Assembly (NCBI GenBank): GCA_035297125.1
Contig: DATGZQ010000019.1
Coordinates: 12,940-76,939 of the forward strand
DNA length: 64,000 nucleotides
DNA from: Thermoplasmata archaeon
Lineage (GTDB): Archaea > Thermoplasmatota > Thermoplasmata > Lutacidiplasmatales > UBA184
Direction: 5' to 3'
Shown here piece by piece: positions 8,951-52,644 of the stretch (position 1 is its first letter; the number at the start of each line of letters is the position of its first letter). The position numbers and the translations under genes are program-made. The notes below the pieces were generated by a model. It ran no database searches. It had not been told where the DNA came from and worked only from the letters and a program-made list of their open reading frames with translations.

Positions 8951-9409
8951 CTAGAAGTACTCCTCGCCGACGCGGGAGTACGCGAGGTAATCGTCGGGCT
9001 GGAAGTAGAGCGCGAGCTCCCGCGCCGCAGACTCCGGAGAGTCGGAGGCGTGCACGAGGTTCGGCGTGATCCCGAGCGCGAGGTCGCCCCGAACGGTGCC
9101 GGGTGCGGCCAGCTGGGGGTTGGTCGTGCCGATCACCAGCCGGGTCACCGAGATCGCCGAGCGCCCCTCGAGGGCGAGCGCGACGATCGGCCCGGAGGTG
9201 AGATGCTGGATCAGTGCGGGGTAGAACGGCTTTCCCTGGTGCTCGGCGTAGTGCCGTTGTGCGAGCTCCGGCGCCACCCGGAGGGTCTTCGCGGCCACGA
9301 TCTTGAGCCCCTTTCGCTCGAACCGTCCGACGATCTCCCCCACCACTCCTCGCCGCACGCCGTCGGGCTTCACGAGGACGAGCGTGCGCTCGACGTTCCC
9401 CTCTGCCAT
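8951..9409 (-). CDS. ndk: nucleoside diphosphate kinase
   Basis: 152 aa. ERTLVLVKPDGV and the NxxHGSD-type active site (NLVHASD). Confidence 0.9.
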   Translation of the reverse strand: MAEGNVERTLVLVKPDGVRRGVVGEIVGRFERKGLKIVAAKTLRVAPELAQRHYAEHQGKPFYPALIQHLTSGPIVALALEGRSAISVTRLVIGTTNPQLAAPGTVRGDLALGITPNLVHASDSPESAARELALYFQPDDYLAYSRVGEEYF

Positions 9410-9493
9410 CGGCTCGACCAGCCTACGGGCACGCTAAAGCTTTCGCGCCACCCCGAGAGCAGACCTCTTCATCCCGACCGGTTCGTCCGAGGC

Positions 9494-10144
9494 GTGCCGC
9501 CCCGGCGAGGGAGCGTCATCGGGCTCGACCTGGCGGGGAGCCCCGGCCGGCGGACCGGATTCTGCCGGCTCGGGCCGGGGCTCGCGACCCGAACCGCTCC
9601 GCTGGCGGGCGATGCGGAGATCCTGGACGCGGTGCGTTCCTCCCGGCCGAGCATTGTCGCGATCGACGCTCCCCTGAGTCTCCCGGCGGGCCGACTCTCC
9701 CTCGACATTCCCGGCCCTCCTCATCTACGGCGATGCGACCGCGAGCTGCAGAAGCTGGGGATCCGGTTCTTCCCGGTCACCCTCGGCCCGATGCGGATGC
9801 TCACCGCCCGGGGGATCGCGCTCGCCCAGCGGTTCCGCGCCGAGGGGTTCACCGTCATCGAGGCGTACCCCGGCGGCGCCCAGGATCTCCTCGGGATCCC
9901 GCGGAAGGGAGCGGGCGTGGAGACGTTGCGAAGGGCCCTCGTTCGCTTCGGGTTTCGCGGCGACGTGGAGCGCACGGCGATCACCCACGACGAGCTGGAC
10001 GCCGTGGTCTGCGCGTACACCGGCCGCGAGCACCTCGCCGGCCGCTCCCTCGTCCTCGGCGACCCCGCGGAGGGCCTGCTCGTCCTGCCCCGGCCGCGCT
10101 CGGTCCGCGGGCGTTCCGTGCCCGCACGGCGGAGGTCCGCGTGA
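9494..10144 (+). CDS. DUF429-family predicted RNase H-fold nuclease
   Basis: GTG start at 9494. VIGLDLAG...IVAIDAPLSLP...HDELDAVVCAYTG matches the DUF429 pattern. Its stop overlaps the next gene as GTGA. Confidence 0.5.
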   Translation: MPPRRGSVIGLDLAGSPGRRTGFCRLGPGLATRTAPLAGDAEILDAVRSSRPSIVAIDAPLSLPAGRLSLDIPGPPHLRRCDRELQKLGIRFFPVTLGPMRMLTARGIALAQRFRAEGFTVIEAYPGGAQDLLGIPRKGAGVETLRRALVRFGFRGDVERTAITHDELDAVVCAYTGREHLAGRSLVLGDPAEGLLVLPRPRSVRGRSVPARRRSA

Positions 10145-10920
10145 GAGAGCCCACCTTCCGGACCGCCCCCGCCGTGCGTGGATTCGAACGAAGCGCCGAG
10201 GCGTACGAGCGGGGCCGGCCGGGTTACCCGGCCTCGGTCGCCCGGCACCTCGCCCGCGCCCTCCGGCTCGGACCCCGTCGGACGGTCGTAGAGCTCGGCA
10301 GCGGGACGGGGAAGTTCACGCGGACGCTCGTTCCTGTGGGATGCGCTATCGTCGCGGTGGAACCGACCGCCGGCATGCGCCGGGTCTTCGAGCGCACGGT
10401 TCCCGACATCCCCGTCCTTCCCGGGACCGCGGAGGCGATCCCTCTGCCCGACGGGCTCGCCGACGCGGTCGTCGCCGCCCAGGCGTTCCAATGGTTCCGC
10501 CCGCGGCCCGCGATGGAGGAGATCGCGCGCGTGCTGCGACCGGGCGGAGGGTTGGGCCTCGTCTGGAACGTCCGGGACGAGTCGGTCGGCTGGATGAAGG
10601 CGGTCTCGAGGATCCTCGGCCGCTACAACCACGCCCCGCAGGTCCGCGAACGCCGGTGGAAGGCCGCGTTCCGGGCGAAGGGCGTGCCCTTCCCTCCCCC
10701 TCGGATGCGCCGCATCTCCCACGTCCAGCGGGCGACCCCCTCGGAGGTCCTCGACCGGTTCCTCTCCGTGAGCTCCATCGCCATCCTTCCCGCGGCGGAC
10801 CGCCGGAAGGTCGCGACGGAGATCCGGGAGCTCCTCCGTTCGGACCCCATGACCCGGGGCCGGTCGTACGTCGACCTGCCGTACGACACCGAGGTCTACT
10901 GGACCCGCCTCAAGCGTTGA
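10141..10920 (+). CDS. class I SAM-dependent methyltransferase (small-molecule type)
   Basis: GTG at 10141. VELGSGTGKFT is motif I and LRPGGGLGLVWNV is the motif II/III region. No DPPY/NPPW, so not a DNA methyltransferase. Confidence 0.65.
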   Translation: MREPTFRTAPAVRGFERSAEAYERGRPGYPASVARHLARALRLGPRRTVVELGSGTGKFTRTLVPVGCAIVAVEPTAGMRRVFERTVPDIPVLPGTAEAIPLPDGLADAVVAAQAFQWFRPRPAMEEIARVLRPGGGLGLVWNVRDESVGWMKAVSRILGRYNHAPQVRERRWKAAFRAKGVPFPPPRMRRISHVQRATPSEVLDRFLSVSSIAILPAADRRKVATEIRELLRSDPMTRGRSYVDLPYDTEVYWTRLKR

Positions 10921-10937: not shown

Positions 10938-11453
10938 TCAGCCGGGTCCGGCCCGGACGTCACAGACGTCCGCCCAGGAGCAGCGCCCGCAGCGGCCCGG
11001 GCTCGGCGTCGCCCGCCCGTCGTACCTGGCCCGGACCGCGCGGTCGATGGCGAGAAGCTCGGATCGGGCGGTCGCGTTCCAGGCGACCCTAACCTCCCGG
11101 TCCGTGTAGCGCAGCACGCCGAACGAGGGCGAGCGGCCTGTCGTTTCCTCCACGAGCAGGCAGTACGCCCACACCTGGACGACATGCGACGGGAAGGCGC
11201 CGCGCGCGGGCGCCGCCCGGTGCTTCAGCTCGATCGGGACGAGCGTCCCGTCGGGCGCGCGACGCAGGATGTCCGGGCGACCCGAGAGGCGGTACCGTTC
11301 CGAACGGAGGGTCTCCGGTCGGCCGGCGTCGATCGATACCAGGGACCCGAACCGGCGGTCACGGCGCCGGTGCGCGAGCAGTCCGGCGCCGGCCGCGAGG
11401 ACGATCAGCCCGACGCCGAGTACGGCGAGGGCGAGGAGCGGCGTCACCGCCAC
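10938..11453 (-). CDS. Cas4-family nuclease, C-terminal segment (second TM helix, D...ELK, QxxxY, CX2CX5C)
   Basis: 171 aa. Starts with helix AVTPLLALAVLGVGLIVLAAGAGLLA. GRPDILRRAPDGTLVPIELK gives the RecB motifs II/III, HVVQVWAY the QxxxY motif, and GRCGRCSWADVC the three C-terminal Fe-S Cys residues. Confidence 0.55.
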   Translation of the reverse strand: MAVTPLLALAVLGVGLIVLAAGAGLLAHRRRDRRFGSLVSIDAGRPETLRSERYRLSGRPDILRRAPDGTLVPIELKHRAAPARGAFPSHVVQVWAYCLLVEETTGRSPSFGVLRYTDREVRVAWNATARSELLAIDRAVRARYDGRATPSPGRCGRCSWADVCDVRAGPG

Positions 11454-11695
11454 AGGAAGACCGCCAGCGCCCCGAGGACCAACAGCGCGCCGATCCCCAC
11501 GAGGGCCCAGTAGGCCGACCCGTGCGCCGAACGACGGAGCTCACCGCCCAGCGTCCGGGCGTGATATCTCTCCCCCGCTACGGAGCTCCGGCTCGGCGGG
11601 GCCGACCCGTACGTCTGCCGGTAGTAGTGCGCGCGCGGGCAGTACGCATACTCGGCGAGCTCGGACGGGGTCGTCCACCGCTCTTCGGAACGCAC
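11444..11695 (-). CDS. Cas4-family nuclease, N-terminal segment (first Cys, GxxH motif, first TM helix)
   Basis: 83 aa. AEYAYCPRAHYY is the Cas4 N-terminal Cys motif and GERYHARTLG the Cas4 motif I. Ends in a hydrophobic helix AYWALVGIGALLVLGALAVFLW. The stop overlaps the next ORF. Confidence 0.55.
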   Translation of the reverse strand: MRSEERWTTPSELAEYAYCPRAHYYRQTYGSAPPSRSSVAGERYHARTLGGELRRSAHGSAYWALVGIGALLVLGALAVFLWR

Positions 11696-11761: not shown

Positions 11762-12193
11762 CTATGCGTCGTCGGCCGAGTCCGAAGCCTTCGCCTTGGG
11801 CTTCGGCTTGCGCGGTCTCGGCGCCTTGGCCGCGTCGGCCTTCGCTTCTCCGGTCGCCTTCGCGCGTGCCGGAGCTGCGGGAGCCGGGGTCTCCTTGGCG
11901 GCGGGAGCCGGTTCCTTGGCGGCGGGGGCGGCCTTCGACGGGGCGGCGGTCGCGGGGCGGGACTTCGGCGAGGCGGCCGAGGCGCGCACGCTCGCCGAGT
12001 GCTCGGCGGCCTTCTTCAGCTCGTACGCCCGGGTCCACTTGAACCGGTGGCCGACCCGGCCCAGCTTCAGCTGCTGCTTGCGGCACGACGACGTGCAGAA
12101 ATGGAAGACGGTCCCGTCGCGCTTCACGAACATCGACCCGGTGCCGGGTTCGATCTCACGGGCGCAGAACGAGCACTGGCGCTTGACCACCAT
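11762..12193 (-). CDS. rpl24e: 50S ribosomal protein L24e with a long Ala/Pro/Lys-rich C-terminal tail
   Basis: CSFCAREIEPGTGSMFVKRDGTVFHFCTSSC is the L24e zinc ribbon. The protein is 143 aa against the usual 60-70 aa. The tail is KAAPAAKEPAPAAKETPAPAAPARAK... ending in KPKPKAK. Confidence 0.8.
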   Translation of the reverse strand: MVVKRQCSFCAREIEPGTGSMFVKRDGTVFHFCTSSCRKQQLKLGRVGHRFKWTRAYELKKAAEHSASVRASAASPKSRPATAAPSKAAPAAKEPAPAAKETPAPAAPARAKATGEAKADAAKAPRPRKPKPKAKASDSADDA

Positions 12194-12203
12194 GGGAACG
12201 TTC

Positions 12204-12416
12204 CTACCGGACCGAAAGCTTTCGGGCCTCGCGCGCGGTCTCTCGGAGGATCAGGACGTCGCCCAGGCGGATCGGGCCGGCCACGTTCCGGGTGATGATC
12301 TTGCCCCGATCGCGGCCCGCGAGAACGCGCACCTTGACCTGCGTCGCCTCGCCCGCCATCCCGGTGCGGCCTACGAGCTCGACGACCTCGGCCGGCGAGC
12401 CCTTCTCTTCCGCCAT
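12204..12416 (-). CDS. rps28e: 30S ribosomal protein S28e
   Basis: 70 aa. [51 protein letters not shown] is near-consensus S28e. Confidence 0.9.
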
Positions 12417-12441: not shown

Positions 12442-12813
12442 TCACTTCTTCAGCGTCGGGTACGCCGCGGCGATCTCGTCGAGCAGGGCCTTCGCCTCAC
12501 CGGGCTCGACGATCGCAACGCTCGCCGCCGACTTCGAGAGCCCGGCGGCCTGGCCGAGCCTCAGCTTCTTCGGGACGTAGACGTACGGGATGCGCTTCTC
12601 CTCGCACAGCATCGGCACGTGGACCAGGATCTCGACCGGGTCGACGTCCTCTGCCATCACGATGAGCTTCGCTTCCGCGCGCTCGCTCGATTTGGTGACT
12701 TCGTTCGTGCCGACCCGGATCTTGCCCGTCTCGCTCGCCACCTGAACGAGCTGGAGCACTTTGTCGGCGAGGTCGCTCGGGGTCTCAAACCGTACGTAGA
12801 TGGGTCGCGCCAT
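12442..12813 (-). CDS. rpl7ae: 50S ribosomal protein L7Ae (K-turn binding)
   Basis: 123 aa. [30 protein letters not shown] is the L7Ae/L30e core. Confidence 0.9.
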
Positions 12814-18758: not shown

Positions 18759-21538
18759 GGGCCCGGTCCGTCGCCCGCGAGCTCCTCGTCCCGCAGGCGG
18801 AGCGCCTCGTCGAACGCCTCCGTGTCCAGCGTTACCCTCGGCGCGGACGGTCCCGGGGCGAGGCAGAAGCGCGCCTTCCCGTCGGGCCCGACGCTCGCAC
18901 CCAAGGTCCCGTCCGTCACGAGGGACGCGAGCCAGTCGGCGAGGTCCGGCGGGGCGGGAGGAGGCTGCCAGGACGACTCGACCTCGGGCAGGTCGACCGG
19001 CCCGTGCCGGCGCACGATCTCGACGATCGCGGCCCGGCCTTCGGCGAGGCGCTGGAGCTCGCTCTCGTCCGACGGACCCGGAGCTCGGCGGCGAGCCCGC
19101 CGCAACGCGACCAGCATCACGCCGGCCCCGAGCGCGACGATCCCGAGGAGGGCTCCCACGACGCCGTACGGCACGGCCAGATCGTCGGCCGCGGCTAGCG
19201 CCGGTACCGTCAGCGGCCCGAGGAGGGCCTTGCCGGCGCCGTCCAGCACCGTGACGGTCCCGCCTTCGGGACCAGGGGCGGAGAAGTTGACCCAGACCCC
19301 GGTCGAGCCGTTCGATTCGGGCGAGGCGGTCTCGTTCTCTTCGGAGCTCTCGGAGCCCCACACGTACCGGATCGTCACGTTCGCCCCGGGCACAGCGTTG
19401 GCGAACCGGTCCTCCACTTGCCAGTACGTAGCGTTCGTGCGCGTTCCGCTCACGGCCACCACGGGGTCGTAGAGGCGGAGGTGCTCGGTATCCGGGTTCG
19501 CGAGAATGTGGATTTCGGGGACCGCGGACGGTAGGCCCCTTCCGACGAGCTCGACCGAGAATGGGCCGGCGGCGAGCACCTCGACGGTGAGGGCGAGCGT
19601 CCCGTTGACCCAGGCCGCGCCGGGAACCTCGAACGTACCGTTGCCGCCGCCCGTCAGGGGGCCCACGGTGGAGGCGTTGACCCAGCCGACCGGCGCCGTG
19701 GACCCCGGGCCCGCGAGGACGACGCTGGCGTTCGTCGAGAACGTCGGCACCGGCTGGTCCGAGCCGTCCAGCGCCTCCCAGCTCAGCGGAACGGAGCCGC
19801 CGACCACGACCGACGACGCGGGCGGGGTTCCGGTTTCGGTCAGCCGTACGGCCGATGCCGGCCCCACGGTGAGCGCGAGCGCGGAGCGAACGACGGTGCC
19901 GAGGGCATCGCGCGCCGTCAGTGTGAGGGTGACGGAGCCGGTACCGGACGGGACGAACGAGAGCCAGAGTTGGCCGTCGGCGCCCAACTCTCCGCTCTCG
20001 AGCGGGGCGTCCTCCGTGGAAGCGTTCCACCAGTACCGTCCGGGAAGGTCACCGCCCGTGATCGTGGAGGAGACCGAAAGGTTCGCCCCGACCGTCGCGT
20101 TCGGGGTCTCGAGGTCGAGCGAGGTCGCTGCGAGAGGGGCCACGACCGTGACGACGAACGAGACGGACCGGTTCGTCCCTTCCGAGTCCACGGCCCATGC
20201 AGATGCGGTGTACTGCCCGGGCGAAGCGTAGACCGGGTCGAACGTCCAGCTCGGCCCGGGCGCGCTCGTGCACAGCGGGGCACCAGACCCCGGGTCGAGG
20301 CACGCCTCCTCGAACGGAAGGATACCCGAACCCGCCGTGGCGATCAACTCGACCGGGAGCGGGGAGAGCGCGTAGCCGGTCGGGAACCCCGGAGTCACCC
20401 AGAGCGCGGCGGCAGGGTCCACCATGACGCTCGGGAACTGGCCGATCGCGGCCGAGAAGCCGTTCGTGACGTTGAACGCCGGCTGCGCGATGCCGGGTCC
20501 GGTGTAGGTGAGGTTGGCCAGGCACGTGGCCAGGACCGTTCCGGGGCCGTAGGCCGTCGTGCCGCACGGAACCTGGACCGCCGCAAGGCCGAGCCCCGGG
20601 TCGAGCCAGGCCCGATAGGCGTAGCCGGCGGCGCCCACGACCGTCACGTTGGCGGAGACGTTGGAGCCGACGTCCAGTTCGGTACGGTTGAGCTCGGCCT
20701 CCGCGAGCGTCGTCGCGACCGCGTCGAGGGCGATCGTACGCGGAGGGGGCGAGAGGGCCGTTCCGTTGACCGTCGCCTCGGCCTGTACGGTGAGCTTTCC
20801 GGCCGTCGCACCGGGGACGGAAACGATGGTCGCCCGGTCCCCGACGGGGGCGGTGGAGAGCGCCCAACCGGTCCCGTTGAGCGTCCAGGTGTAAGCCGGG
20901 TCGAGCGGAGTCGCGGAGCCGTTCCCCTGCCACCCCGAGGCCACGAGGGAAATCGGGGCACCCGGGGCCACGGTGAGGGTCGACCCGGCGGGCGAGAGCG
21001 TGATGTCTTCGAGCAGCCAGACGAGAGCCAGGTCCGCCGCGTCCGACGTCACGTCGAACGAAAGCGCATAGCCGTCGGGCGGGGGCTCCGAAAGCGAAGG
21101 GGTGAGCGGCCCGATCGCCGAGGAATAATCCGTGCAAACGGTACCGTTCGGTACGGGAGTGCAGTAGCTGCGCGGCGTCGTGGGCGCGAACGAGAACGCT
21201 CCTCCAGCGTCCGTCGTCACCGAACCCGAGAGCGACGCACAGCTGGCGCTCGCCACGACGCCACCGGGTTCGTCCACGACCCAGACGTCCACGAAGTACG
21301 AGAACCGGATCGTGGCACCGCCGGTACCGTTCGGGGGGAGCGGCCCCCCATCGACCTTCAGGGTGCCGGCGTACACGGGCCGCAGGTGCGACCCCGCGCA
21401 GGCACCCGAGGTCGCGAAGGCGGTCGGCGGGCTCGACGAGGAGTGTGGGGGAGGACCCCACGATAGGACGAGGGCAACAATCACCACGGCGACCACCGGA
21501 CCGGGGATCGATCTCGAGAACGAGCCTCCGGCCGGCAC
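18755..21538 (-). CDS. cell-surface (S-layer-like) glycoprotein with signal peptide, C-terminal TM anchor and cytoplasmic tail
   Basis: 927 aa. The N-terminal hydrophobic h-region is VVAVVIVALVL. More than 20 N-x-S/T sequons (NGT, NVS, NAS, NLT, NRT, NET and others) lie in a Thr/Ser/Gly/Ala/Val-rich body. A C-terminal helix VVGALLGIVALGAGVMLVAL is followed by RRARRRA and an acidic tail of about 100 aa. Confidence 0.6.
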   Translation of the reverse strand: MPAGGSFSRSIPGPVVAVVIVALVLSWGPPPHSSSSPPTAFATSGACAGSHLRPVYAGTLKVDGGPLPPNGTGGATIRFSYFVDVWVVDEPGGVVASASCASLSGSVTTDAGGAFSFAPTTPRSYCTPVPNGTVCTDYSSAIGPLTPSLSEPPPDGYALSFDVTSDAADLALVWLLEDITLSPAGSTLTVAPGAPISLVASGWQGNGSATPLDPAYTWTLNGTGWALSTAPVGDRATIVSVPGATAGKLTVQAEATVNGTALSPPPRTIALDAVATTLAEAELNRTELDVGSNVSANVTVVGAAGYAYRAWLDPGLGLAAVQVPCGTTAYGPGTVLATCLANLTYTGPGIAQPAFNVTNGFSAAIGQFPSVMVDPAAALWVTPGFPTGYALSPLPVELIATAGSGILPFEEACLDPGSGAPLCTSAPGPSWTFDPVYASPGQYTASAWAVDSEGTNRSVSFVVTVVAPLAATSLDLETPNATVGANLSVSSTITGGDLPGRYWWNASTEDAPLESGELGADGQLWLSFVPSGTGSVTLTLTARDALGTVVRSALALTVGPASAVRLTETGTPPASSVVVGGSVPLSWEALDGSDQPVPTFSTNASVVLAGPGSTAPVGWVNASTVGPLTGGGNGTFEVPGAAWVNGTLALTVEVLAAGPFSVELVGRGLPSAVPEIHILANPDTEHLRLYDPVVAVSGTRTNATYWQVEDRFANAVPGANVTIRYVWGSESSEENETASPESNGSTGVWVNFSAPGPEGGTVTVLDGAGKALLGPLTVPALAAADDLAVPYGVVGALLGIVALGAGVMLVALRRARRRAPGPSDESELQRLAEGRAAIVEIVRRHGPVDLPEVESSWQPPPAPPDLADWLASLVTDGTLGASVGPDGKARFCLAPGPSAPRVTLDTEAFDEALRLRDEELAGDGPGP

Positions 21539-50443: not shown

Positions 50444-51508
50444 GTGTCGGCTCCTTCCTCTACCGGACCTTCGGCCGGCGCGTTGGCCGTCCGTCAGGTC
50501 CGACGCGCGGGCCGGGCCGTTCACACGCTCACGCGCGTGCTCCGCGCGAACCCGCTGACGCTGGTCGGGTTCGTCCTCGTCGTCGTGATCGCCGTCACCG
50601 CGGTCTTGGTGCTGGTGGCCCCCCACCTCCTGACGCCGTACGCGCCCGACCAGGGCACGACCGACTACACCCAGGGGCCGTCGTGGAACCACCCGCTCGG
50701 GACGGACGGGAACGGGATCGACATCTACGCAGAGGCCCTGTACGCCCTGCCCCTCGACCTCGCGCTCGCGTTCGCTATCGCCGGGGTGGCGATGCTGGGG
50801 GGAGGCGCGCTCGGTCTGGTCGCCGGCTACTGGGACCGCCCCGGCACGCTCGGGGGCGCGCTCTCCGTGGTCGTGATGCGGGTCACCGACATCTTCCTCG
50901 CGTTCCCCAGCCTGATCCTGGCGCTCGCGATCGCGGTGTCGCTCGGACGCGGCGTGGTCCAGCTCGTGGTCGCGATCCTGGTCACTTGGTGGCCGTACTA
51001 CGTACGGCTGGTCCGGGGCGAGACCCTCGCGGTGAAGCACCTGCCGTACGTCACGGCCGCGAAGGCGGCCGGGGTGACCGACCGCCGGATCGTCCTCCGG
51101 CACATCCTCCGCAACGTCCTCGAGCCGGTGGTAGTCTACTTCTCCCTCGACATCGGGACCGTCCTCGTGACGCTCTCGACCATCGGGTTCGTCGGCCTCG
51201 GGCTGAACTACCCGACCACGGCGGAATGGGGGAGCATGATCTCCTACTACCAGGTCGCCGGATTCATCACGGCCTATCCGTGGACGGTCCTCGGGCCGGG
51301 GGCGGCGATCTTCGTGACGGTGCTCGCGTTCAGCCTGCTGGGTGACGGGCTGAGGGACGTCCTCGACCCCCGCAGCCGGCGGGTCCTCGCCGGCTCCGGC
51401 GGGCCGGACTCCACCTCTCCCGCCTCCGTCGACCCCACGCCCTCGCCGTCCGCCGGCCCGCTGCCCGGGGAGGGTCTCCCGGCCGCGGCTCCGGGAGGGA
51501 TGACGTGA
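50444..51508 (+). CDS. peptide/nickel-type ABC transporter permease (DppC/OppC-like)
   Basis: 354 aa. TM-rich. EAA-like region AAKAAGVTDRRIVLRHILRN. Confidence 0.8.
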   Translation: MSAPSSTGPSAGALAVRQVRRAGRAVHTLTRVLRANPLTLVGFVLVVVIAVTAVLVLVAPHLLTPYAPDQGTTDYTQGPSWNHPLGTDGNGIDIYAEALYALPLDLALAFAIAGVAMLGGGALGLVAGYWDRPGTLGGALSVVVMRVTDIFLAFPSLILALAIAVSLGRGVVQLVVAILVTWWPYYVRLVRGETLAVKHLPYVTAAKAAGVTDRRIVLRHILRNVLEPVVVYFSLDIGTVLVTLSTIGFVGLGLNYPTTAEWGSMISYYQVAGFITAYPWTVLGPGAAIFVTVLAFSLLGDGLRDVLDPRSRRVLAGSGGPDSTSPASVDPTPSPSAGPLPGEGLPAAAPGGMT

Positions 51509-52644
51509 CCGGTCCGGTCCTCTCCATCCGCGACCTGACGATCGATTATGTGATCGGAGCGGGCCGCTTCCGGGCGGTCTCGGGGGTATCGTTCGACGTC
51601 GCCCCGGGGCGCGTGATGGGGATCGTTGGGGAGACCGGGTGCGGGAAGAGCACTCTTGCGCAGGCGATTCCCCGCCTCCTGCCGGAACCGCCGGCGACCA
51701 TCGGTGGCGGGTCCATCGAGTTCAACGGGGTCGACCTCGTGAAGGTCCCTCAGTGGAAGATGCCCCGGATCCGCGGGACCGGCATCAGCATGATCTTCCA
51801 GGAGCCGCTCAACTCGCTGAACCCGGCGTTCCGGATCTACGACCAGCTCGCGGAGGCGGTCCGCATACGCCAGGCCCGGGACGCGGGGCACACAGTACTC
51901 GACCGCCGGGAGGCCCCGCCGTTCGACTACACGCGCCGGCCGAAACCCGAGGTCGGGGATGCGCTCGTTCGGCCGCTGGTGCCGGGGGGCGCCACGGCGA
52001 AGGCGGCGCGCCGCTCGCTCTCCGGCCGCCGCGAGCTGCGCGAGGACGTCCTCGAGTACCTTCGCCTCGTGCGGATCAACGACCCGGAGACGATCCTCGA
52101 CCTCTACCCGCACGAGCTCTCGGGCGGGATGCGCCAGCGCGTGATGATCGCGATGGCCCTCTCCGAGCGGCCGGCGCTCCTGATCGCCGACGAGCCGACC
52201 AGCGCGCTGGACGTGACGATCCAGGCCCAGGTCCTGACGCTGATGAAGGACCTCATCGAGGAAGTCGACACGTCGATCCTGTTCATCAGCCACGACCTCG
52301 GCGTCATCGCGGAGACGGCGGACGAGCTGGGCGTGATGTACGCGGGGAAGCTGGTGGAGCTCGGCCCCGTCGACGAGATCTTCGGATCGCCGCGGCACCC
52401 GTACACGAAGGCCCTCCTCCGCGCAGCGCCGACCCGCTACAAGTCCGACGGCCCCCTCCTCTCGATCCCGGGGTCCGTGCCGAACCTCGCGAAGCCTCCG
52501 GCGGGCTGCCGATTCCATCCCCGCTGCCCGATCGCGAAGGACGTCTGCCGTGCCGAGCCGGCACCCCCGCTCGACCTGGTCGCAGGGACGGCGTCGCACC
52601 GCAGCGCCTGCCACTTCGCGGCGGAGGTGCCGCAGCTCGTATGA
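51505..52644 (+). CDS. ABC transporter ATP-binding protein (OppD/DppD-like) with a 50-aa insertion
   Basis: Walker A GETGCGKST, signature LSGGMRQRV, Walker B LLIADEPTSALD, and the oligopeptide C-terminal domain HPYTKALL...CRFHPRCP. Confidence 0.85.
   Translation: MTGPVLSIRDLTIDYVIGAGRFRAVSGVSFDVAPGRVMGIVGETGCGKSTLAQAIPRLLPEPPATIGGGSIEFNGVDLVKVPQWKMPRIRGTGISMIFQEPLNSLNPAFRIYDQLAEAVRIRQARDAGHTVLDRREAPPFDYTRRPKPEVGDALVRPLVPGGATAKAARRSLSGRRELREDVLEYLRLVRINDPETILDLYPHELSGGMRQRVMIAMALSERPALLIADEPTSALDVTIQAQVLTLMKDLIEEVDTSILFISHDLGVIAETADELGVMYAGKLVELGPVDEIFGSPRHPYTKALLRAAPTRYKSDGPLLSIPGSVPNLAKPPAGCRFHPRCPIAKDVCRAEPAPPLDLVAGTASHRSACHFAAEVPQLV

Follow-up and report, generated by a model that had tools for sequence, protein, structure and literature searches.

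Does the minus strand downstream of the ribosomal gene L24e in a Thermoplasmata archaeon carry one damaged Cas4-like gene, or two intact genes for the two parts of one enzyme? The question arises in a 64-kilobase window, by which we mean the whole analysed stretch of 64,000 nucleotides (nt) from contig DATGZQ010000019.1. Two abutting open reading frames (ORFs), ORF1 (11444..11695, minus strand, 83 amino acids (aa)) and ORF2 (10938..11447, minus strand, 169 aa), together hold the elements of a Cas4-family nuclease. The first-pass annotation of the window reported all Cas4 hallmarks over these two minus-strand ORFs, with two hydrophobic helices inserted between motifs I and II and a reading frame that switches at the turn between the helices. 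It offered as explanations a single gene with a sequencing error or an authentic frameshift, a recoding site, or a recently disrupted gene. The coordinates, the motifs and the position of the frame switch were all reproduced in the present analysis, and none of those explanations was borne out. We propose instead, with a probability of about 0.78, that ORF1 and ORF2 are co-transcribed, translationally coupled genes encoding a two-piece, membrane-anchored solo Cas4-family nuclease.

The N-half, ORF1, comprises the Cas4 N-terminal segment, motif I and membrane helix 1, and ends with a TGA codon. Its Cys19 (11639-11641) lies in the YCPR of the segment AEYAYCPR, and motif I spans Gly41 to His45 in GERYH, with His45 encoded at 11561-11563. 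The C-half, ORF2, starts with membrane helix 2, followed by the GRPD of motif II with Asp59 (11271-11273), the ExK of motif III with Glu73 and Lys75 (11223-11231), the QxxxY motif with Gln91 and Tyr95 (11163-11177) and the CX2CX5C cluster with Cys153, Cys156 and Cys162 (10962..10991). All of these lie on the minus strand, and ORF2 residues are counted from the GTG at 11447. The RecB nuclease motif set (His, Asp, ExK and QxxxY) is thus complete across ORF1 and ORF2, and the four-Cys hallmark of Cas4, one N-terminal Cys plus CX2CX5C, which in that family serves a [4Fe-4S] or [2Fe-2S] cluster, is present as well, though on two chains. Cys19 of ORF1 and Cys153, Cys156 and Cys162 of ORF2 are predicted to be the four ligands of a [4Fe-4S] cluster split over two polypeptides.

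Profile comparisons uphold the Cas4/DUF83 homology that the first-pass annotation had suggested. ORF1 matches positions 2-42 of the 180-position NCBIfam model TIGR00372 (cas4) with an E value of 8.6e-5 and 22.4 bits, and ORF2 matches positions 51-179 with 53.0 bits. Each half alone falls below the curated cut-off of 65 bits, whereas the concatenation of the two reaches 72.0 bits. About 8 profile positions stay unmatched, at the site of the two hydrophobic segments. ORF2 alone passes the Pfam family Cas_Cas4 (PF01930) with 27.9 bits against a cut-off of 22.7, and also PDDEXK_1 (PF12705) with 33.6 bits. The residues D59, E73, K75, Q91, Y95, C153, C156 and C162 of ORF2 are invariant in alignment A1. 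In alignment A3 of 35 sequences, given in the numbering of the fused product, C19, R21, Y25, G41, H45, D142, E156, K158, Q174, Y178, C236, C239 and C245 are invariant. The solved structures related by sequence are Cas4 proteins only. The predicted activity of ORF1 together with ORF2 is that of a metal-dependent DNA nuclease. The pair departs from the usual single soluble polypeptide of Cas4 in being encoded by two genes, each with one predicted transmembrane helix.

Two GTG codons could serve as the start of ORF2. Read from the first (11453), ORF2 spans 10938-11453 and encodes 171 aa. The second, at 11445-11447, overlaps the TGA of ORF1 as GTGA (11444..11447, minus strand), a canonical 4-nt stop/start overlap, and this gene junction falls at the predicted extracytoplasmic turn of the helical hairpin. 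Since the closest relatives, loci L001 and L009, start ORF2 at the position of the second GTG, ORF2 probably has 169 aa and the conceptual fusion 252 aa, which corrects the 254 aa given at first.

The two-gene layout is shared by relatives. When 5.8 billion proteins were searched with the conceptual fusion, the best 120 matches were proteins of 154-189 aa that all cover the ORF2 part only, and the named sources among them are Thermoplasmata archaeon genomes. Searching with the ORF1 protein yielded 21 homologues of 81-95 aa and one 45-aa fragment. A scan of one genome per species gave 70 loci, of which 67 are titled Thermoplasmata archaeon, and the comparative set comprises 65 distinct loci including the window, from independent assemblies and almost all from Thermoplasmata. 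Throughout this set ORF1 stops at the end of helix 1 (TGA in 60 loci, TAG in 3 and TAA in 2) and ORF2 is read in the -1 frame with respect to ORF1, so that no locus holds the two halves in one frame. ORF2 starts with ATG, GTG or TTG in an NTGA 4-nt overlap at 28 loci, and 12-18 nt further upstream, with an overlap of 16-22 nt, at another 32; altogether one of these start codons stands at or near the junction in 64 of the 65. In the contigs of relatives, where the neighbourhood is the same, an 83-aa gene and a 169-172-aa gene overlap by 4 nt. ORF2 is preceded by Shine-Dalgarno-like matches of 5 nt or more in 20% of the loci, compared with 5% of internal control positions, which lends modest support to an independent initiation of ORF2. 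The overlap or short spacer is conserved across species and so are both products, as in a coupled operon. As this comparison indicates, the frame change is not a break, being conserved in every relative examined.

Selection acts on both halves. Nei-Gojobori ratios of nonsynonymous to synonymous substitution rates (dN/dS) over 15 pairs range from 0.10 to 0.56 for ORF1 and from 0.07 to 0.33 for ORF2, and both ORFs are under purifying selection. These values bear directly on the proposal that the frame break is an indel from sequencing or assembly, or else a recent loss-of-function mutation, and the locus a pseudogene. Indel errors do occur in such data, as extra frame breaks in the long-read relatives L007, L045 and L066 attest. 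However, the junction in the window is the same as in the 64 other distinct loci, from short-read and long-read assemblies alike, and sequencing error is excluded because so many independent assemblies share it. In addition, both ORFs have dN/dS ratios clearly below 1, the catalytic and Cys residues do not vary, and the break is universal in the clade and present in bacteria too. A pseudogene is therefore next to negligible as an explanation.

The extra breaks just mentioned lie inside ORF1 or ORF2 in three long-read assemblies of the MFD series (L007, 3650-4510; L045, 3550-4450; L066, 3650-4520), and short-read relatives are without them. They are most likely homopolymer indel errors, which can mimic fusions as well as pseudogenes. 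L045 was considered as an in-frame fusion and rejected, as the extra break is inside ORF1 and places helix 1 and its stop in another frame.

A programmed -1 ribosomal frameshift, or another form of recoding, would join the two ORFs into one 252-aa chain with a membrane hairpin. The constant -1 frame of ORF2 at every Thermoplasmata locus would suit such a mechanism, most loci have an ORF2 frame that stays open well before the junction, and the single-chain relatives described below show that a fused product would be viable. An open upstream frame is however expected anyway at 70% G+C, and the signals of recoding are missing where they were looked for. A slippery heptamer of the form X XXY YYZ is absent from the final 60 nt of ORF1 at all 65 loci but present in 50 of 660 control windows, and the junction nucleotides are not conserved beyond the TGA. 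The 114 nt downstream of the junction in the window, the only locus tested for this, fold no better than shuffled sequences (z -0.5). The ORF2 start codon at or near the junction in nearly all loci also argues against recoding, and in L027 a TAG stands in the ORF2 frame directly before the GTG start. In the bacterial members the junction is a spacer, or an in-frame stop with an ATG after it. Recoding is very unlikely on these grounds. Reading TGA as a sense codon was also considered and rejected: the ORF1 frame beyond its TGA continues as RRSSPSPYSASG and then meets a stop, and ORF2 itself ends in TGA at a conserved C-terminus.

Many archaea and bacteria share the predicted two-piece, membrane-anchored design. 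When the ORF2 alignment was used in an exhaustive profile search, it gave 1,732 cluster representatives at E <= 1e-3. About two thirds of the best 150 of these are of the ORF2 type, with 160-185 aa, one N-terminal helix and no N-terminal Cys motif, and wherever the DNA of ORF2-type relatives was read, an ORF1-type gene ending in a membrane helix lies directly upstream. The junctions take different forms. In Desulfobacca (L075) a TAG is followed by gcc and an in-frame ATG, and in a metagenome contig of 68% G+C (L080) TGA and GTG are separated by a 1-nt spacer. L082 and L083, of 50% G+C and without a called ORF1, read TAG, ggc, ATG. The pair on plasmid PALBO2 of Paludisphaera borealis PX4 (L084, 30615-31396) has an ATGA overlap and is annotated as separate genes in RefSeq, for a 91-aa hypothetical protein and a 'PD-(D/E)XK nuclease family protein', and that on a plasmid of Bacillus subtilis NRS6116 (L085, 14300-15038) has a 4-nt spacer. 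Such varied geometry across lineages is expected of ordinary adjacent genes and not of a recoding signal.

The proteins of the P. borealis pair are WP_076351862.1 and WP_076351885.1, and those of the B. subtilis NRS6116 pair WP_144625283.1 and WP_144625286.1. The plasmid pairs have DNA-metabolism genes as neighbours. The P. borealis pair adjoins a large DNA methyltransferase gene and umuD, and the B. subtilis pair sits between a helicase gene and genes for hfq, thermonuclease and toprim proteins. ORF1-type genes are often left uncalled in annotations, as in L001 and L002 (2687-3004), L082 (3740-3996) and L083, where a 'gap' of about 300 nt precedes the annotated nuclease gene. Those that are called bear the label hypothetical, and the C-half goes under the name Cas4. 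Annotation seems to miss the N-half of this family systematically.

Single-chain relatives of 243-560 aa were found in addition. In these, 2, 4 or about 8-10 hydrophobic helices connect the N-segment (..SAxxLxxYxYCP..H) to the nuclease core, and the insertion point of the helices is identical in all of them. The 4-helix form of about 331 aa has more than 1,600 matches in genomes named Thermoplasmata, Thermoplasmatota, Candidatus Natronoplasma and 'Methanobacteriota', under the database names 'CRISPR-associated protein Cas4' or 'Dna2/Cas4 domain-containing protein'. Three such loci have housekeeping surroundings with no cas genes among them, and none of the three occupies the L24e-ndk slot. A rough neighbour-joining tree of the nuclease core places the 4-helix forms in one clade and scatters three 2-helix single-chain forms among the split forms, with at least 4 changes of state. 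As the tree is not robust, it gives an indication only that split and unsplit forms may interconvert. No relative appeared in a scan of viral contigs with alignment A1, and tblastn against 50,697 phage records gave no match, either with the window ORF2 or with the ORF2-type protein of B. subtilis. A phage origin or a role in superinfection exclusion was therefore dropped for want of support.

The hydropathy profile agrees with one membrane helix in each half. Kyte-Doolittle peaks over 19 residues, averaged over 64 loci, are 2.40 for helix 1 and 2.38 for helix 2. Helix 1 is encoded at 11447..11518 (minus strand; ORF1 residues ~60-83, SAYWALVGIGALLVLGALAVFLWR), and helix 2 at 11373..11441 (minus strand; ORF2 residues 3-25, PLLALAVLGVGLIVLAAGAGLLA), followed by the positively charged HRRRDRR. 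Lysine and arginine together average 3.0 in the 15 residues before helix 1, 4.5 in the 15 residues after helix 2, and 0.56 in the loop of about 7.5 residues made of the ORF1 tail and the ORF2 head. From this charge pattern, both soluble parts are predicted to be in the cytoplasm, with the cut in the external turn. For structure prediction by AlphaFold2, the window fusion was submitted with alignment A6 of ORF2-type and single-chain relatives; the short ORF1-only homologues, which MAFFT misplaced in the mixed alignments A4 and A5, were excluded from it. The resulting model has a mean pLDDT (predicted local distance difference test) of 89.0 and a pTM (predicted template modelling score) of 0.84. 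Residues 60-84 and 86-114 form two helices arranged as a hairpin, and the remainder is an α/β domain. The modelled fusion has the three-dimensional fold of Cas4; a Foldseek search agrees with this, and the model aligns over 181-183 residues with complete Cas4 structures.

These data also bear on whether ORF1 belongs to the nuclease at all. ORF2 might be a self-sufficient anchored nuclease, and ORF1 a separate small membrane protein outside the catalytic fold, for example a regulator, an inhibitor or a chaperone. ORF2 alone passes the Pfam Cas4 family and has motifs II and III, QxxxY and three Cys, and ORF1 is often missed by gene finders. The Cas4 of Leptospira (PMC8610317) and the solo-Cas4 of M. 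mazei (as cited in PMC13621843) are both reported to be active without a Fe-S cluster. However, ORF1 aligns with the N-terminal 40 positions of the Cas4 profile and with the N-terminus of Pcal_0546 (4r5q), and its Cys and His are invariant. The counterpart of this His in SSO0001, His62, is a ligand of the catalytic metal, and four Cys hold the Fe-S cluster of that protein (Lemak 2013, as quoted in PMC13621843). The segment equivalent to ORF1 is covalently part of the protein in the single-chain relatives, and the length over which the fusion model aligns with complete Cas4 structures likewise argues for a joint fold. An ORF1 outside the catalytic fold is thus unlikely.

We propose the following model for the assembly of the two-piece nuclease. 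ORF1 would run from a cytoplasmic N-domain through helix 1 to a very short external tail, and ORF2 from a very short external head through helix 2 to a cytoplasmic nuclease core. The two helices would pair in the membrane as a hairpin, as in the single-chain relatives. This pairing would place Cys19 and His45 of ORF1 against the ORF2 core with Asp59, Glu73, Lys75, Gln91, Tyr95 and Cys153/156/162. The active site would thereby be completed, and a [4Fe-4S] cluster with ligands from both chains would form, on the cytoplasmic side of the membrane. Because the N-half supplies Cys19 and the C-half the rest of the Cys ligands, the cluster would bridge the two chains. We predict that the enzyme cleaves DNA at the membrane, in the manner of the Cas4, AddB and Dna2 nucleases. 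The analysis establishes the gene pair with its conservation, the selection on either half, the Cas4 homology and fold of the halves together and the charge pattern behind the topology; the physical assembly, the shared cluster and the DNA substrate are inferred. The biological role is only a guess, namely that the enzyme may handle DNA ends at the membrane, for instance those of incoming foreign DNA.

Several points weigh against this two-piece nuclease. The making of the ORF1 and ORF2 proteins and their mutual binding are predictions from sequence, and a frameshifted fusion product may also be made at a low level. The AlphaFold2 model is that of an artificial fusion and not of two chains. 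L055 has no canonical ORF2 start near the junction. The neighbourhoods differ by lineage, being ribosomal/ndk here, TPD/GlmS or methionyl-tRNA synthetase for the single-chain forms of Thermoplasmatota, and DNA-metabolism genes on the plasmids of bacteria.

The Cas4 proteins known so far consist of one soluble chain of about 160-220 aa. In Cas4, AddB and Dna2-type nucleases, which are soluble, the Fe-S cluster ties the N-terminus of a single chain to its C-terminus. The Fe-S nuclease domains of AddB, AdnAB, Dna2 and Exo5 occur in large soluble helicase-nucleases or in soluble enzymes, and to our knowledge none of them is membrane-inserted or split at this position. The closest known proteins are Cas4 itself (SSO0001, 4IC1; Pcal_0546, 4R5Q; type I-C, 8D3L; the Cas4-Cas1 fusion, 7MI4) and solo-Cas4 proteins such as that of M. 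mazei. The pair described here differs from known Cas4 by the membrane hairpin between motifs I and II, by two genes cut at the turn of this hairpin, by the four Cys ligands on two chains and by the absence of Cas1 and Cas2 partners. With the single-chain forms of Thermoplasmatota it shares the N-segment (xSAxxLxxYxYCP...H), the insertion point, the core with CX2CX5C and the solo housekeeping context. Those forms, known from databases only, differ in being one polypeptide, usually with at least 4 helices, at other genomic positions.

The pair also resembles ordinary ATGA- or GTGA-coupled genes and split archaeal genes, such as the fragmented genes of Nanoarchaeum equitans (PMC3491384), in its 4-nt or short overlap or spacer and in two conserved halves that are both needed for one fold. 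Unlike those, ORF1 and ORF2 are cut inside the catalytic domain, at the external turn of a hairpin. Because the cut lies at this turn, the membrane helices could act as the assembly device of the two halves. This family shows that the core of the Cas4 fold can accommodate a membrane hairpin, or an insert of 4 to about 10 helices, and that the fold can be divided between two genes at the hairpin turn, in which case the shared Fe-S cluster and helix-helix packing would keep an active site made of two chains together.

No description of a membrane-inserted or split Cas4 was found in the literature that could be searched, and neither a Cas4 phylogenomics paper (PMC5704561) nor the paper on the M. 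mazei solo-Cas4 (PMC12501428) mentions transmembrane or split forms. The first-pass annotation had stated that no membrane-inserted Cas4-like nuclease was known; this holds for papers describing one, but not for databases, which contain more than 1,600 single-chain and many split sequences. The enzyme family is known and the genes are public under generic names, whereas the membrane-inserted architecture and the conserved two-gene form were not found described. We suggest tentatively, at somewhat less than even odds, that these proteins form an undescribed class of solo Cas4, a two-chain membrane nuclease with paired helices and one bridging [4Fe-4S] cluster that would act on DNA at the cytoplasmic side, occurs widely on the chromosomes of Thermoplasmatota and on plasmids of bacteria, and converts to and from single-chain forms. 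Possible DNA targets of such a class would be ends entering the cell by infection, conjugation or uptake.

The function of solo-Cas4 proteins is still poorly understood, and the predicted two-piece membrane-anchored group is a large and easily recognised subgroup of them. A membrane-tethered nuclease that is vertically inherited in an archaeal order and also present on plasmids of bacteria speaks for an as yet unstudied activity where membrane and DNA meet. Culturable hosts, P. borealis PX4 and B. subtilis strains with plasmids of about 64 kilobases, offer experimental access.

The solo, non-CRISPR housekeeping context noted at first was confirmed for the window. No CRISPR array was found in the 64 kilobases, and the 37 other candidate ORFs, screened against PADLOC, gave no core cas match; the pair is therefore regarded as a solo Cas4-family system. 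Nor were cas genes seen in the neighbourhoods of the relatives. The sole short-range direct repeat in the window (19142-19249) consists of 2 copies of 33 nt, 75 nt apart and 76% identical. It lies inside a long ORF and is not a CRISPR array.

On the minus strand the gene order is a synthetase of the tyrosyl-/tryptophanyl-tRNA synthetase type, L7Ae (12442-12813), S28e (12204-12416), L24e (11762-12193), ORF1 and ORF2, with the three ribosomal genes assigned by Pfam scan. The upstream order L7Ae-S28e-L24e is shared with L001-L006. Downstream follow a class-I methyltransferase gene (~10150-10920, plus strand), DUF429 (~9470-10144, plus strand) and ndk (8951-9409, minus strand), with Sua5/YrdC and an M24 peptidase beyond ndk on the minus strand. 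The pair had been placed between rpl24e and ndk, and L24e is indeed its upstream neighbour; ndk is not adjacent, as the methyltransferase and DUF429 genes intervene on the opposite strand. The order methyltransferase/DUF429/ndk is also found in L001 and L003, and L005 has it without the methyltransferase. DUF429 and the methyltransferase were considered as functional partners and rejected, being neighbours in this clade only and not at the single-chain or bacterial loci. Because the neighbourhoods are inconsistent across lineages, the context yields no functional clue.

Some neighbours and distant genes have features of their own. DUF429 matches the PADLOC candidate defence family PDC-S44 (E 2e-13) with its C-terminal part only. 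For the class-I methyltransferase the match is mad2 of the MADS system (E 5e-17), which probably reflects generic methyltransferase similarity. A 379-aa ORF at 51505-52644 (plus strand) matches the PADLOC models mad3 (E 1.6e-29), mad8, AriA and ATPase-Toprim; judged by these matches, its product is an ABC/OLD-like ATPase, and the gene, about 40 kilobases from ORF1 and ORF2, may be defence-related. In the L24e protein of 143 aa only residues 5-65 match the L24e domain, and the C-terminal part of about 75 aa is an Ala/Lys/Pro-rich low-complexity tail (…AAPSKAAPAAKEPAPAAKETPAPAAPARAKA…KPKPKAKASDSADDA). The L24e proteins of relatives have 132-135 aa, and the tail extension appears conserved in the clade.

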